DNA of 64,000 nt, taken from NCBI GenBank assembly GCA_964583395.1, contig CAZOVM010000005.1:7184-71183 (forward strand). The letters run 5' to 3'. Made by a program: the position numbers and the translations under genes. The stretch's first letter is position 1, and each line of letters starts with the position of its first letter. This DNA comes from an uncultured Pedobacter sp. Its GTDB lineage: Bacteria; Bacteroidota; Bacteroidia; Sphingobacteriales; Sphingobacteriaceae. This document shows positions 1,091 through 59,024 of this stretch, in pieces. The notes beneath the pieces were generated by a model. The model did not search any database. It was not told the origin of the DNA and saw only the letters and a program-made list of their open reading frames with translations.

Positions 1091-2185
1091 ATGAACAAAA
1101 AATACAATCATACTCAAGCTACCCTTGCACTGGCAAGGGCAAGCTTTAGATCCATTTTAAGAAGTCCGTCGGCAGTGGTTTTTACACTGGCATTTCCGTT
1201 GGTTTTTATTTTAGTATTCGGATTTTTAAGCTCTGGAGGTGTTAAAATTGATTTGGCCCTTGCTCCGGGCTCAGATACTAATAACCCAATATTAACAGCT
1301 CTGGAAGATAATTCGGTTATTAAAATAATCAAAGACACAGACACCTCAAATATCAAAAATGCTTTGATTAAAGGAAATTATGATGCTTTAATAGATATTC
1401 AACCTAATAAAAAAGAGGAATTTCCTAAATACATTACCAATATAACTTATACAACAGCTAGCCCTGATAAAACCAATATTTTTAGAGCGCTTATACAGAG
1501 CTTGCAACTTCAACTTAATAGTGCAGAACAAGTTCCAACCGTAACAACGATACAAGAAACTACTTTACAAAGCAGACCTTATAGTACTATTGATTTTATA
1601 TTACCCGGTCAATTAGGTTTTTCTTTACTAAGCACCGGCGTTTTTGGAACTGCATTTGTTTTTTTTAGCTTACGCCAAAATTTAGTAATAAAAAGATTCT
1701 TTGCTACTCCGGTTAGAAGATCAAGTATTGTAATGGGAGAAGGTATAGCCAGAATAGGCTTTGCTTTATTAGGCGCGCTAATTATTATATTAATAGGAAA
1801 CCTATTCTTCGGATTTACGTTAATAAACGGATACGTCACGGTCATAAATATGCTCCTGCTCTCCTTTTTAGGGGTGTTGGTGTTTATGGGATTCGGGTTT
1901 GTGATTTCCGGAATTGCAAAAAGCGAAAGTACAATCCCTCCTATTTCAAATATTATTACCCTCCCTCAGTTTTTATTATCGGGCACCTTTTTTTCTATCA
2001 GTATATTTCCGCCATGGTTACAAGTAATTAGTAAAGCATTACCACTAACTTATTTAAATGATGCTATGCGAAAAGTAGCTTTTGAAGGTTTAAGTCTTTG
2101 GGATGTACGTATTCAAATTCTAATCTTAGTTGCCTGGGGTATCGGCATCTACGCACTTGCCGTGAAATTTTTTAAGTGGGAGTAA
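1091..2185 (+). CDS. ABC-2 type transporter permease
   Basis: N-terminal TM, large extracytoplasmic loop, C-terminal TM bundle with LSGTFF...LPLTY; 13 bp after the ATPase. Confidence 0.9.
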   Translation: MNKKYNHTQATLALARASFRSILRSPSAVVFTLAFPLVFILVFGFLSSGGVKIDLALAPGSDTNNPILTALEDNSVIKIIKDTDTSNIKNALIKGNYDALIDIQPNKKEEFPKYITNITYTTASPDKTNIFRALIQSLQLQLNSAEQVPTVTTIQETTLQSRPYSTIDFILPGQLGFSLLSTGVFGTAFVFFSLRQNLVIKRFFATPVRRSSIVMGEGIARIGFALLGALIIILIGNLFFGFTLINGYVTVINMLLLSFLGVLVFMGFGFVISGIAKSESTIPPISNIITLPQFLLSGTFFSISIFPPWLQVISKALPLTYLNDAMRKVAFEGLSLWDVRIQILILVAWGIGIYALAVKFFKWE

Positions 2186-53344: not shown

Positions 53345-53980
53345 CTATAGCCAGCTTACAACACCAGTTTCGACGTTGTAATTTGCACCTACTATTTTTA
53401 TTTTCCCATCTTTTTCCATTTGATTTAAAGTAGTACTTTGGCTACGTATATCTTCTATAGTTTGTTTTACATTTTGCAAATTCAATCTTTCCAATAAATC
53501 ACTATTTTTAGATGAACGCTCTTCTCCTTCAATAAGAATTTCATCAATAATTGGATTAAAATGATCTACTAGGTGGATAAGATTTTCCATCCCGGTTTCT
53601 CGAATTGCACTAGAATCTAGTCCTCCTTTTAAAGCACCGCATTTTGAGTGTCCTAAAACAACAACCAATTTAGATCCTGCAACATTACAGCCAAACTCCA
53701 TAGAACCCAAGATGTCTTGGTTTACAAAATTTCCAGCAATTCTCACGCTAAAAATATCTCCTAACCCTTGATCAAAAATCAACTCAGCAGATGTACGGCT
53801 ATCTATGCAACTTAATATTACAGCAAATGGCCACTGTCCTGCTCTTGTATCATTTACTTGGGCTAATAAATCTCTATTGGCTTTTAAATTCTGCACAAAT
53901 CTTTCATTACCTTCTTTTAAGATTTCAAATGCTCTTTCAGGAGTAATTGTAGTTTGTGTTTCTAACGTATGTGCCTTCAT
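53345..53980 (-). CDS. Beta-class carbonic anhydrase
   Basis: CIDSR, DQGLGDIF..RIAGN, GHSKCGA zinc ligands; ATG 53980 preferred. Confidence 0.95.
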   Translation of the reverse strand: MKAHTLETQTTITPERAFEILKEGNERFVQNLKANRDLLAQVNDTRAGQWPFAVILSCIDSRTSAELIFDQGLGDIFSVRIAGNFVNQDILGSMEFGCNVAGSKLVVVLGHSKCGALKGGLDSSAIRETGMENLIHLVDHFNPIIDEILIEGEERSSKNSDLLERLNLQNVKQTIEDIRSQSTTLNQMEKDGKIKIVGANYNVETGVVSWL

Positions 53981-53984
53981 ATTC

Positions 53985-55586
53985 TTAATTTTTAATTTGG
54001 TCTTCAATTTTTGTATTTAATTTTGGCACATTATACTGTTTGTCAATGTGCTCTAAAGTTACAATAATTCCTTTAGTAATAGCATTATGTTTGTAATTGA
54101 AAATAGCTTCTAATACATCAGGGTCAATGTATTTAGATGAAGAGCCATCTATCACAACATTCGTTTCTTTAGGTATTTTATTAAAAATAACCTGAATAGC
54201 TGCTTTATTTAAAAATGTAACTTCTTCTGCAAGCTTTATTCTTAATTGTTTATTTTCTTTTTCTTCTATTACTCTGTAGAAGAATGGATTTCTCATACTT
54301 ATTCTTAATAAATAGAAAATAGAAATAAGAACGCCGATTGCAACTCCTTTTAATAAATCCGTTAATAAAATAGCTACAATTGTTACCACAAAAGGTACAA
54401 ATTGATCCCAGCCTTTGTGGTACATATGTTTAAACAAAGCAATGCGGGCAAGTTTATAACCTGTCACTAATAAAATGGCCGCTAAACATGCTAGAGGTAT
54501 CATATTAATAAGTGTTGGAATAAACAAAAGAGAAAGCAATAACCACGCACCATGGAATATTGATGACATTTTCGTTTTACCACCCGCATTTACATTTGCC
54601 GAACTTCTAACGATTACAGATGTCATAGGCAATCCACCTAATAATCCGCTCGTCATATTACCAAAACCTTGGGCTACAAGCTCTCTATTTGTAGGACTCA
54701 CCCTTTTTATTGGGTCTATTTTATCAACAGCTTCAATACTTAATAAAGTTTCTAAACTTGCTACAATTGCTATTGTTCCTGCAACCACCCATACATCGCT
54801 GTTACCTATAGCAGAGAAATCGGGGAATTGAAGTAATCCTGTTAATTCACTCCAGCCTCCTATAACAGGAATATTAACCATGTGACTTGCACCTAATTCA
54901 TAAGCCGTTCCCTTAAACGCTAAAGCAATAACCACCCCACACACAACCACCATTAAAGGAGCAGGAATTAGCTTAAACATTTTAATTTTCGGCCATAATA
55001 TAAGTAAGGCGATTGAAACAACACTTACAATAACTGCAGCCAATCCAACATTGCTAAAGGCATTTATAAACCCTCCAATAACACTACCACTGTCGGTAGA
55101 CATAATTTCGTCTGTAAAATGAGCAGAGTCTACGCCCAAAGCATGTGGCAATTGCTTTAATATTAACATTAAACCAATAGCAGCCAACATCCCTTCAATT
55201 ACGCTCGACGGAAAATAATTACCAATAGTTCCGGCTTTTACCATCCCCAGTATTAACTGAAAAACACCTGCTAGAACTACGGCTAATAAGAAAATTTGAT
55301 AGCTACCTAATTGAGCAATAGAGCCTAAAACGATAACCGTTAATCCTGCTGCCGGACCTGTCACACTTAATTGCGATCCACTAATAGACGCTACAACAGT
55401 TCCCCCTACTATACCGGCAATAAGACCCGCAAACAATGGAGCACCAGAGGCCAATGCAATACCTAAACATAAAGGTAAAGCAACTAAAAACACAACCAAA
55501 CTGGCTGGCAAATCTTTCTTTAAATTCTTCTTAAGAATATATCTTTTCGCATCGAGCCTAGAGCGGTTCGAATTTCTATTTATCAT
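53985..55586 (-). CDS. SulP/SLC26 anion (likely bicarbonate) transporter with short STAS-like C-terminus
   Basis: VALPLCLGIALASG, GPAAG, ETLLS, ELVAQG.GN, SVIVRSSAN; 4 bp upstream of the beta-CA. Confidence 0.93.
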   Translation of the reverse strand: MINRNSNRSRLDAKRYILKKNLKKDLPASLVVFLVALPLCLGIALASGAPLFAGLIAGIVGGTVVASISGSQLSVTGPAAGLTVIVLGSIAQLGSYQIFLLAVVLAGVFQLILGMVKAGTIGNYFPSSVIEGMLAAIGLMLILKQLPHALGVDSAHFTDEIMSTDSGSVIGGFINAFSNVGLAAVIVSVVSIALLILWPKIKMFKLIPAPLMVVVCGVVIALAFKGTAYELGASHMVNIPVIGGWSELTGLLQFPDFSAIGNSDVWVVAGTIAIVASLETLLSIEAVDKIDPIKRVSPTNRELVAQGFGNMTSGLLGGLPMTSVIVRSSANVNAGGKTKMSSIFHGAWLLLSLLFIPTLINMIPLACLAAILLVTGYKLARIALFKHMYHKGWDQFVPFVVTIVAILLTDLLKGVAIGVLISIFYLLRISMRNPFFYRVIEEKENKQLRIKLAEEVTFLNKAAIQVIFNKIPKETNVVIDGSSSKYIDPDVLEAIFNYKHNAITKGIIVTLEHIDKQYNVPKLNTKIEDQIKN

Positions 55587-55725
55587 AAAATTTTATATAA
55601 ATTATCCTGTACAACCACCTAAAATGGAGGTCGCAAAAAACAATGCATTCGTAAATATTTATTTACTTAGTTAGTGTGGTCTACACACTGTTGAAAGGTC
55701 ACCAAAATTTTTTGGTGATATAATT

Positions 55726-56061
55726 TTACGAGAAATTAGGAGGAGGGGTTGGAACTGATGGATGATAAGGATCCAAATATCTCTTAGAATGTTCTATAAA
55801 ACTATTGTTTAAAGCATACCCTTTAACAATAGGACTAAATGTATAAGTAGAACTGCAGAATAACTTAGTCTCAACAAGCTTAACGCCTGATTTACCAGAA
55901 TCTTTCTCGCCGTGTTCAACTTCTAATTGCATAATAACGCTATTCATCATAACGCTATCAAATTTCAAAGAAAATGCGGGTGCAATAGAAATTATCATTT
56001 TTGCTGTAAAAATGCCTACAAACAGAAAAACTATAAAATTTCTTATTTTCTTTGACTTCAT
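55726..56061 (-). CDS. 111-aa membrane-anchored upstream ORF ending in HPSVPTPPPNFS (candidate leader/arrest peptide)
   Basis: N-terminal hydrophobic segment, Pro-rich C-terminus; -7 element TACTTTTG at 56077-56084 (minus strand) directly upstream. Confidence 0.75.
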   Translation of the reverse strand: MKSKKIRNFIVFLFVGIFTAKMIISIAPAFSLKFDSVMMNSVIMQLEVEHGEKDSGKSGVKLVETKLFCSSTYTFSPIVKGYALNNSFIEHSKRYLDPYHPSVPTPPPNFS

Positions 56062-56215
56062 ATATTTTATTAACTACAAAAGTACTTCCTAAATACAGAA
56101 AAACGAACCTTTGTTTTTAATTTTTTTGTCATTTATTTAATACGTTACCTAAAATAGCCATAGCTAAAATAAAAAATGAGCTTATTAATTATATTAAATA
56201 GCTTAAATTTATGCC

Positions 56216-57466
56216 ATGAATAACGTACTGAACAAATCAGGCATTTTTTTCTTGTTTTTATTTTTGCCGACAATTATGTTGGCCCAAAATAACAACTTAC
56301 CATCTTCTAAAGAAGAACATGAACTAACAATTACTGGTTATCTTCAAACTCAATATCAACGTGCTCAATCTCCAGGAGTAGTTACATTCTCCGGAGGTGA
56401 TTTTGGAAAAGATTCTAGAGAACGATTTATGATTAGAAGAGGAAGACTTAAAATAGACAGAGTAGATAAATTCACAAATGTTGTTTTTCAATTAGATGGA
56501 ACTCAAAACGGTGTTCAGTTAATGGATGCGTTTATTCAGGTTCATGATCCGAACAGAAAAGAGTTCACTTTAACTGCGGGCTTATTTAACAGACCATTTG
56601 GTTATTCTATCGTTTATTCTTCAGGATATAGAGATTATCCGGAGCGTGCTCGCGTATTTCAAACGCTTATGCCTAGGGAAAGAGATCTTGGAGCCATGTT
56701 AGGTTATAACCCGTTGGGTAAACTAAACTTTTTAACCGCCGAATTTGCTGTAATTAATGGCAGTGGAATAAGTGCAAGAGATTACGACTCAAAAAAAGAT
56801 ATAGTGGGTAGCTTAAGCTTTAAATTTGATAGCCTAGCTTTCAATAAATTGGGCATCGGATTTGGAGGCTCTTTCTATCAAGGTCACGTAAGAAATAATA
56901 CACAAACAATATACAGGAGTGCAAAAGGTGGATACCGTGCAGATATTGATCCAAATAACGAAGGGGCTTTTGGTGCACGTAATTACTATGGCGTAAATCT
57001 ACAACTAGAATATAAAACATCTATTGGCTTGGCTTCTTTTAAAACAGAGTATGTAGCAGGCACTCAACCGGGTGTAGAAGGCACATCCAGTATTAAAGGT
57101 CCTACCTCTTCCATGAGCTTTACAACCCAACCTTTAACATCCTTATATGTAAGACCCTTTAATGGATACTACTTTTGGGTTGGACAAGAATTATGGAAAA
57201 CCAGATTAACAGCCATTTTAGCCTATGATGTTTACGATGCTAATACGGATGTTAAAGGTTTAGAAATTGGAAGAGCAGGGAGTAACACCAACTCAGGAGA
57301 TATAAAATATGCCACTTTGGGATATGGCCTAACTTATGATTTGAGCAAACAAATTAAATTAACTTTGTATAACGAACACATTAAGAACGAAAATACCTTA
57401 GTACCCGAATATACAAATGATATAAAGGACAATGTATTTACCACGCGCTTACAATATAGATGGTAG
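56216..57466 (+). CDS. Anion-selective porin (OprO/OprP-like)
   Basis: Signal peptide, [26 protein letters not shown]...D.DSKKD, C-terminal RLQYRW. Confidence 0.75.
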
Positions 57467-57482
57467 ATTAAACAAAATAAGA

Positions 57483-59024
57483 ATGCAAGACAAAATAGCA
57501 AAACTACACGATAAGATCAAACAGGCGGAGTTAGGCGGCGGAGCTTCAAGAATAGAAAGTCAACATAAAAAAGGAAAACTCACAGCTAGAGAACGGATCC
57601 ATTTTCTATTAGATGAAAACAGTTTCGAAGAAATCGGAATGTTTGTAACACACAGAAGTACTGATTTTGGAATGGAATCAGAAAAATATCTTGGTGACGG
57701 AGTTGTTACTGGATATGGAACCATTAATGGTCGTTTAACCTATGTGTTTTCTCAAGATTTCACTGTTTTTGGAGGCTCTTTATCAGAAACACATGCCGAA
57801 AAGATTTGCAAAATAATGGATATGGCTCTTAAAAACGGCGCACCATTAATTGGTTTAAACGATAGTGGCGGAGCGAGAATTCAGGAAGGAGTTGTATCGC
57901 TGGGGGGATATGCAGATATCTTTTATCGAAATGTTCAAGCTTCGGGTGTAATACCACAACTATCTGCAATTATGGGTCCATGTGCTGGTGGCGCAGTTTA
58001 TTCTCCCGCTATTACTGACTTTATATTAATGGTTGAAAAATCATCTTATATGTTTGTTACCGGACCAAATGTAGTTAAAACGGTTACACATGAGGAGGTC
58101 TCTTCTGAAGAATTAGGTGGTGCTCAAACGCATGCTACAAAATCTGGAGTAACACATTTTGCTTGTTCGAATGAAATCGATGCAATTAATCATCTTAAAG
58201 CTTTACTAAGCTACATGCCTCAAAATTGCGAAGAAAATGCCCCTAACATTTCTTACGATTCAGGAGATGAAACCAGAGCTGAGCTCGATACTATTTTACC
58301 ACAAAACACCACTCAACCTTACGATATACGAGAAGTAATTGAACACGTAATAGATAAAGACTCTTTTCTTGAAGTTCATGCAGGTTATGCAGAAAATATT
58401 GTTGTAGGATTCTCGAGGCTTGCCGGTCGAAGCATAGGTATAGTTGCTAATCAACCTGCCTATTTAGCCGGTGTTTTAGACAATCACGCATCCGTTAAAG
58501 CAGCAAGATTTGTTCGTTTTTGCGATGCTTTTAACATTCCATTGTTAGTTTTTGAAGATGTTCCGGGGTTTTTACCGGGAACCGACCAAGAATGGAATGG
58601 TATTATAAGCAACGGCGCTAAACTATTATATGCCTTTAGTGAAGCAACGGTACCTCGTATCACTGTAATTACCAGAAAAGCTTATGGTGGTGCATACGAT
58701 GTTATGAATAGTAAACACATTGGTGCCGACATGAATTATGCCTGGCCTTCGGCAGAAATCGCTGTAATGGGCGCAAAGGGAGCTGCAGAAATCATCTTCA
58801 AAAAGGAAATCAAAGAAGCAGAAAATCCTCAAGAAAAATGGTTAGAAAAAGAAAAATTGTACTCAGATATTTTTGCTAACCCTTACCGCGCCGCAGAAAG
58901 AGGCTTTGTAGATGAAGTAATTCAGCCAGCTCAAACCCGAGAAAAGTTAATAAAAGCATTTAAAATGCTTGAAAACAAAGTGGTAAATAATCCACGTAAA
59001 AAACACGGAAATATCCCATTATAA
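57483..59024 (+). CDS. pccB: Acyl-CoA (propionyl/methylmalonyl-CoA) carboxylase, carboxyltransferase beta subunit
   Basis: [57 protein letters not shown]; ATG 57483 preferred. Confidence 0.93.

Follow-up and report, generated by a model that had tools for sequence, protein, structure and literature searches.

The window analyzed here, a 64,000-nucleotide (nt) stretch of contig CAZOVM010000005.1 from an uncultured Pedobacter sp., carries a small gene directly upstream of an operon for a SulP-family anion transporter and a carbonic anhydrase. Read along the minus strand, on which all features lie unless stated otherwise, a -7 promoter motif of the Bacteroidota type (TACTTTTG, 56077-56084) starts 23 nt before the ATG of the small gene. 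It is followed by this open reading frame (ORF) of 111 amino acids (aa; 55726-56061, TAA stop at 55728-55726), a 139-nt spacer, sulP encoding a protein of 533 aa (53985-55586; Pfam Sulfate_transp, 2.8e-60) and, as the last gene of the operon, a beta-class carbonic anhydrase (CA) gene (53345-54007; Pro_CA, 4.1e-37; NF011765, 227.9 bits, above the cut-off). With a Sulfate_transp protein followed by a Pro_CA protein, the operon has the defining composition of a SulP plus beta-CA operon. The SulP product finds its best NCBIfam models in DauA, sulP and BicA, each scoring below its own cut-off. The original prediction for this locus had taken the small ORF for a candidate translation-arrest leader controlling the sulP-CA operon. 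Both ORF and operon lie where it placed them, and the ORF is a real, conserved and unannotated gene, the founder of an unannotated family (P0001).

The spacer (55587-55725) contains no TAnnTTTG, the consensus of the -7 motif, on either strand. A single such motif is uninformative, the whole window holding 95 matches against 97 expected. Of 90 related loci, in contrast, 88 have a -7 motif 12-49 nt ahead of the small ORF and none (0/90) has one in the spacer. Because the motif precedes the small ORF so regularly and is missing from the spacers, the small ORF, sulP and CA are likely to share one transcript, as had been supposed. The likely gene under leader control is sulP. Spacer length ranges from 62 to 249 nt across the related loci, with a median of 86 nt.

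Relatives of the small protein, nearly all of 105-116 aa, number 177 at a clustering threshold of 90% identity and 82 at 50%. The family occurs in every sampled Pedobacter and is sparse elsewhere (10/401 genomes across the phylum). Linkage to sulP-CA operons, another point of the original prediction, holds throughout: the order small ORF, SulP, CA is found in 79 of 80 genome loci, all from Pedobacter or Sphingobacteriaceae. Eight distant members with 27-39% identity, one of them from another class, were checked as well; all eight lie directly upstream of a Sulfate_transp gene, and Pro_CA comes after it wherever the contig continues. At the sole exception among the 80 loci (L026, 4001-5088), the small ORF is placed directly before a carbonic anhydrase gene and no sulP was detected. 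Homology to known families was considered and rejected: searches of Pfam (E <= 0.1) and NCBIfam with the small protein gave no match, no Pfam family was matched consistently by the 83 aligned members, and a profile search of PDB sequences with the family returned none.

It had been expected that only a transmembrane (TM) segment and a proline-rich C-terminus would be conserved. Both indeed are, and the middle of the protein is variable, but there is an additional conserved helix. The N-terminal TM helix (residues ~8-32; 55966-56040) shows conserved F14, F18, K21-M22, I24-S25 and P28, with K21 and P28 invariant in 83 sequences. The additional element is an amphipathic segment, VIMQLEVEH (residues 42-50; 55912-55938), in which Q45 and E49 are nearly invariant and E47 is invariant. 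Column identity in the following linker (residues 51-95) is merely 10-40%, with K61 and K66 as scattered conserved residues; despite this variability, the distance from E47 to PPP stays within 54-63 residues (mode 59-60). The protein ends with PSVPTPPPN (residues 101-109; 55735-55761), the candidate pause or arrest motif, two codons before the stop. The AlphaFold2 model based on the 83-sequence alignment contains a helix at residues 2-30 (predicted local distance difference test, pLDDT, up to 93) and a second at 36-50, the remainder being coil (mean pLDDT 68; predicted template modeling score 0.27). The basic N-terminus (MKSKKIR) and the acidic segment after the TM helix suggest an N-in, C-out topology. 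The N-terminal helix is hydrophobic, and no conserved small-x-small cleavage site is seen in the family alignment. The histidine patches noted at first are not conserved in the family, only H100 being semi-conserved (H or Y), and the invariant residues (K21, P28, E47, T105-P108) include no Cys/His motif. Zn sensing is therefore unsupported, as no metal-binding motif is conserved, and was rejected.

VPTPPPN is invariant in 89 loci, and all four synonymous codons occur at each of its Val, Pro and Thr positions; selection therefore acts on the peptide and not on the RNA. TPPP remains invariant down to ~25% overall identity, and PPP is found three residues from the stop in 81/89 loci. The residues after PPPN are variable (FS, FC, RC, HC, LS, LV, LA, FI and others). 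In a crude set of 2425 genes of this genome, 35 contain PPP anywhere and the small gene is the only one with PPP within its last eight residues. PPN and PPP are strong stallers, and elongation factor P (EF-P) normally relieves stalls at PPP. An efp gene was found in the genome (225.9 bits, above the cut-off), so that both features expected of an EF-P-dependent polyproline stall site, a PPP/PPN tripeptide (here within the invariant TPPPN) and an encoded EF-P, are present.

From the PPP codons to position +15 of sulP, the predicted folding energy of the RNA is -43.5 kcal/mol, a stability that 0 of 200 shuffles reached (z = -5.75). The four internal spacer hairpins pointed out originally (55597-55718; pairing 55711-18/55699-06, 55684-89/55673-78, 55661-66/55651-56 and, as the long one, 55626-48/55597-19) all belong to this minimum-energy fold. 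They are lineage-specific, and the spacers of relatives hold other hairpins. Covariation of the RNA had been expected, and a pairing of the ORF end with the sulP start region does co-evolve. The 5' arm of this spacer-closing helix, CTAATTTCTCGTAAAATT (55722-55739), consists of the N-F-S codons, the TAA stop and four further nt, and its 3' arm, AATTTTATGATAAATAG (55576-55592), includes the sulP start codon (55586-55584). In the window, the helix comprises 16 bp of mostly A-U pairs and encloses the whole spacer; the start region of sulP is without a Shine-Dalgarno (SD) sequence.

Judged from the aligned loci, this complementarity between ORF end and sulP start region is a new finding and is co-evolving. 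The loci L030/L032, L048 and L066 show perfect 15-bp helices in the same arrangement with other sequences, and two compensatory double substitutions distinguish L030 from L066 in the non-coding part (ACATTA/TAATGT vs ACAATC/GATTGT). At L019, the N-L-V codons pair with the M-Q-D codons, and a helix of the ORF end and the region before the ATG closes the spacer also in L090, from another class, and in L089, L095 and L086. A different switch had been proposed originally, with an alternative pairing of the codons of the proline motif to the last spacer stem. The complementarity itself exists in the window, CCTCCTAA (55736-55743) matching TTAGGTGG (55615-55622) with one mismatch, but it is not conserved. 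The CCTCCTAAT/TTAGGTGG switch was rejected on these grounds, the conserved pairing being the one that joins 55722-55739 to 55576-55592.

The spacers are too divergent and indel-rich for RNAalifold, which predicted no consensus pairs when given MAFFT alignments of either 53 short spacers or an 11-locus clade; for this reason, anchored duplex tests and a count over a hand-specified helix were used. The mean energy of cognate duplexes between ORF end and start site is -8.87 kcal/mol compared with -7.11 kcal/mol for non-cognate ones (z = -7.7; 0/5000 permutations), where the phylogenetic relatedness of the loci means that P values overstate independence. Five sham controls, namely two upstream windows of the ORF, the spacer interior, the start of the small ORF itself and the sulP interior, were null (z = 0.2, 0.9, 1.2, 2.0 and -0.1, respectively). 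As a genome-wide null we took 498 same-strand gene pairs of this genome with spacers of 60-250 nt (mean -4.65, standard deviation 2.39). The window duplex, at -9.7 kcal/mol, falls at the 3.2th percentile of this distribution; 36 of the 89 family loci lie under its 5th percentile (~4.5 expected) and 13/89 under its 1st. Within the 11-locus clade, 80% of the cells of the hand-specified helix are paired vs 41-55% in slid registers, one of 500 shuffles reached as high a value, and four pairs are changed on both sides.

If the two transcription units were simply independent, with the small ORF on its own transcript and sulP-CA expressed from an unrecognised spacer promoter, the pairing of ORF end and start site would be incidental and due to A/U richness. 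The spacers are indeed long for an operon at 62-249 nt, TAnnTTTG is just one promoter type, and the conservation of TAA/TTA and TTTT/AAAA accounts for the pairing seen in a fixed register. We nevertheless consider independence highly improbable in view of the contrast in -7 motif occurrence between small-ORF upstream regions and spacers, the specificity of the cognate signal with its null shams, the excess of loci under the 5th percentile of the genome, and compensatory changes at non-coding positions.

The position of the 5' arm relates the helix to a ribosome on the proline motif. Assuming a footprint of roughly +15 nt, a ribosome whose P site holds P108 would either cover the arm or have it directly in front. 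Such a footprint would end at the stop codon, so that most of the 5' arm would be covered and the sulP start exposed. In the folding calculation, opening sulP -18..+12 becomes cheaper by 2.6 kcal/mol on average, and by up to 10, when the PPP-stalled footprint is kept unpaired; the corresponding gain for a sham footprint 40 nt upstream is -0.05 kcal/mol. A sequestering structure that overlaps the footprint of the stalled ribosome, as characteristic of arrest leaders, is accordingly present in the prediction and weak in a clade with short spacers. Whether the arm follows PPP or the stop can be read at four informative loci: L097, L022 and L067 favour PPP and L098 the stop, which is only suggestive of the helix arm tracking PPP. 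In L097 and L022 the stop is further downstream and the arm still stands beside PPP. L022 (1987-2081) carries a 1-nt indel after PPPN that adds five codons (PPPNQLLILFA), and it retains the ancestral stop-region arm GCTAATTTT, still pairing with AAAAATTAGT.

Taken together, our preferred interpretation, to which we assign a probability of about 0.55, is that the 111-aa gene acts in cis as a regulatory leader of sulP-CA in the manner of CutF or SecM, a paused ribosome unmasking the sulP start. A single transcript would begin at the -7 promoter ahead of the small ORF, and the start region of sulP would be locked in a helix with the last codons of the ORF, its stop and the few bases that follow. 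The TM helix and the VIMQLExE segment would insert the nascent chain into the membrane in an N-in, C-out orientation, and the linker of ~60 residues, fixed in length and free in sequence, would set the geometry. While the ribosome dwells on the invariant VPTPPPN, about ten conserved residues upstream of the motif would be located in the exit tunnel, and its footprint together with the helicase front would reach the stop codon. The helix would then be melted by the paused ribosome, allowing a second ribosome to initiate on sulP. The TM helix, the helix behind it and the ruler-like linker are consistent with a chain that is engaged with the membrane during the pause, the geometry described for CutF (PMC9973294; 10.1101/2025.02.05.636593). 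Because Bacteroidetes tune initiation through mRNA structure and not through SD pairing (PMC6847099), a helix over the start site should gate translation effectively.

How long the ribosome dwells at PPPN could be determined by membrane insertion or by an extracytoplasmic signal, as for CutF, MifM and SecM. In a more specific and clearly tentative version, the paused chain, its N-terminal part being inserted already, would be a sensor that responds to a signal at the membrane or on its far side and thereby sets how long the sulP start codon is exposed. Here, the TM residues K21 and P28 and the QxExE segment just outside the helix might sense bicarbonate/CO2, pH or membrane potential; inorganic carbon, pH and membrane potential are guesses at the signal. 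The genomic context points to inorganic carbon supply as a candidate modulator of the putative pause, because a SulP plus beta-CA operon is involved, an acyl-CoA carboxyltransferase is encoded nearby and a carboxyltransferase is divergent in L093/L098.

Several observations weigh against a pause-controlled leader. The window helix is mostly A-U over its 16 bp, and the predicted opening gain for the window itself is just 1.0 kcal/mol. The genome also encodes EF-P, whose normal role is to relieve stalls at PPP. In a single fixed register over all loci, cognate pairing does not exceed permuted pairing (0.547 vs 0.549); complementarity in this register results from the conservation of TAA/TTA and TTTT/AAAA, and the claim of covariation consequently rests on the lineage-specific helices. 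In L098 the arm is at the stop, 25-48 nt from PPP. In the clade with spacers of 75-85 nt, the gain from start-site masking is about zero, and the partner of the ORF-end arm lies 27-37 nt ahead of the ATG, the two enclosing a terminator-like hairpin. Finally, the conservation of the TM helix and VIMQLExE exceeds the needs of a generic insertion signal and would likewise suit a protein that has its own function.

This last point leads to the main alternative, which we rate as possible but less likely: the small protein could be stable and act in the membrane as a partner of SulP, be it a subunit, an assembly factor or a tether, with PxVPTPPPN as a C-terminal docking motif and plain translational coupling in place of a regulated arrest. 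The residue-specific conservation of F14, F18, K21, P28 and VIMQLExE speaks for such a partner, as do the strict synteny with SulP over deep divergence and the encoded EF-P. The RNA data fit equally well, as the helix would merely couple translation of both genes, and any ribosome reaching the stop would open it. A partner protein is, however, difficult to reconcile with ~60 variable residues that are predicted to be coil and the lack of a globular domain, with two residues after PPPN that vary freely and track RNA pairing rather than a peptide motif, and with the uniqueness of a PPP near the C-terminus in this genome. Moreover, the motif spans approximately one exit-tunnel length and keeps a fixed distance from the helix arm.

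A third possibility concerns transcription. The short-spacer clade (L014, L010, L034, L043, L013 and others) shows a GC-rich hairpin followed by T6-8 at spacer positions +6..+45 after the stop. This hairpin is conserved in position and variable in sequence, lies ~38 nt before the sulP ATG and is flanked by an outer stem, UAAUUUUU/AAAAAUUA, that includes the stop codon. It may be an attenuator, and this clade may use attenuation instead of, or alongside, start-site masking. By a loose rule (a hairpin of -7 kcal/mol or stronger that ends within 3 nt of a T-rich octamer), 24/89 spacers contain a terminator-like site, mostly in the 75-85-nt clade and with the hairpin beginning 6-10 nt after the stop; a strict rule is passed by 9/89. 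A terminator in every spacer was therefore rejected, the more so as the window spacer has no terminator-like site on the minus, coding strand. If attenuation were the general mechanism, a ribosome delayed on the last codons of the small ORF would block the terminator hairpin and polymerase would read on into sulP, and transcription would stop after the small ORF when there is no pause. The loose-rule hairpins and the absence of a masking effect make this plausible for the short-spacer clade. As an account of the family it is unlikely, given the few spacers that pass the strict rule and the lack of a terminator on the coding strand of the window. In addition, a PPP-stalled footprint that ends at the stop would miss most such hairpins, and the co-evolving complementarity to the sulP start codon would be left unexplained.

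Among known systems, CutF of Rhodobacter capsulatus and CruR of Bordetella pertussis, both of DUF2946, are closest to the leader proposed here (10.1101/2025.02.05.636593, PMC9973294, PMC9426467). They share with it a small (<150 aa) exported or membrane-targeted protein whose gene immediately precedes the regulated one on a common mRNA, a probable one in our case, a PPP at the C-terminus few residues from the stop, and an mRNA structure, predicted in our case, that hides the downstream start and is opened by a ribosome on PPP. A further parallel to CutF is the set spacing between PPP and a sensor motif, ~45 aa there and ~60 aa here when counted from E47 as part of the candidate sensor. The small ORF also falls within the filter of PMC9973294 (<150 aa, PP among the last 15 residues, a downstream gene on the same strand no more than 1000 nt away), having 111 aa, PPP at residues 106-108 and sulP 139 nt downstream on the same strand. 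Unlike CutF and CruR, the family shows no sequence relationship to DUF2946, which is matched by 0/83 members at E <= 1, and it has no conserved Cys/His metal site; since both sequence membership and metal motif fail, we place it outside DUF2946. Furthermore, it has a putative uncleaved TM anchor with conserved residues in place of a Sec signal peptide, the 5' arm of its helix lies within the coding end of the leader, and its target is an anion transporter with a carbonic anhydrase rather than metal homeostasis genes. The helix covers the start codon itself and not an SD, a consequence of the host phylum initiating without SD sequences.

The monitoring substrates MifM-yidC2 of Bacillus subtilis, SecM-secA, VemP-secDF2 and ApdA/ApdP (PMC7897499, PMC10987492) likewise combine an N-terminal TM or signal segment with a C-terminal arrest region, which is a candidate one in our family, and their arrest unfolds a helix that masks the initiation site of the next gene, as predicted here. 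MifM, with 95 aa, is also of similar size. In contrast to the family described here, these proteins regulate the protein-localisation machinery and sense its activity, their arrest motifs (e.g. RAPP or RAG/P) are unrelated to VPTPPPN, and their TM or signal sequences lack residue-level conservation. As the downstream gene is SulP in 79/80 loci and not secA, secDF or yidC, the small protein is not a Sec/YidC monitoring substrate. The operon itself resembles BicA-like SulP-CA pairs and fusions, with Sulfate_transp and beta-CA in one operon and a bicarbonate-consuming acyl-CoA carboxyltransferase nearby. A difference is that the SulP of the window scores under the BicA, DauA and sulP model cut-offs, so that any substrate assignment is putative. 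A leader ORF before SulP-CA operons was not described in the literature that we searched.

If the leader interpretation is correct, the combination of a membrane anchor with a ruler, a polyproline motif and a masked start would have evolved more than once, and this CutF-type layout would extend past metal homeostasis and protein export. It would also represent a natural case of translation control in a phylum without SD sequences, where ribosomes ignore such sequences and control must therefore act on the accessibility of the start codon. The SulP-carbonic anhydrase module probably supplies bicarbonate to carboxylases, and the leader would offer a handle on how heterotrophic soil bacteria regulate this module. 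Should the more tentative sensor reading hold, the family would be the first nascent-chain sensor in SD-less Bacteroidota, the first known gate on inorganic-carbon or anion uptake, and a case of a family unrelated to CutF converging on the same design.

Besides the sulP-linked members, two weak paralogs (L088, L091) are located away from sulP. The second of these (1492-1842, minus strand), a second copy in genome G179, ends in KTVPTPPPNYFC and sits between an efflux-adaptor-like gene and ABC-TM/HlyD-like genes. It shows no pairing between ORF end and start site (E = -3.4). Further transporters may make use of the PTPPPN module.

On the other side of the small gene, a divergent 416-aa ORF (56216-57466, plus strand) without a Pfam match ends in ...RLQYRW, resembles an outer-membrane barrel and keeps the same divergent position in most loci. 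It is followed, with a 35-nt overlap, by the acyl-CoA carboxyltransferase gene (57432-59024, plus strand), and an acyl-CoA carboxyltransferase is directly divergent from the small ORF in the distant loci L093 and L098. At the end of the operon, the carbonic anhydrase ORF as listed, with a TTG start, overlaps the end of sulP by 23 nt (53985-54007); its true start is probably the ATG at M10, because homolog alignments start from residue 10. Two carbonic anhydrase types occur behind sulP among the Pedobacter loci, with 88-92% vs 24-33% identity to that of the window, the former in ~10 loci (L003, L004, L006, L011, L047, L049, L050, L061, L078, L080) and the latter in the others. SulP identity is 66-79% in both groups of loci. 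Two divergent carbonic anhydrase types next to a uniform SulP identity suggest that the carbonic anhydrase gene was swapped or exchanged behind a stable sulP.

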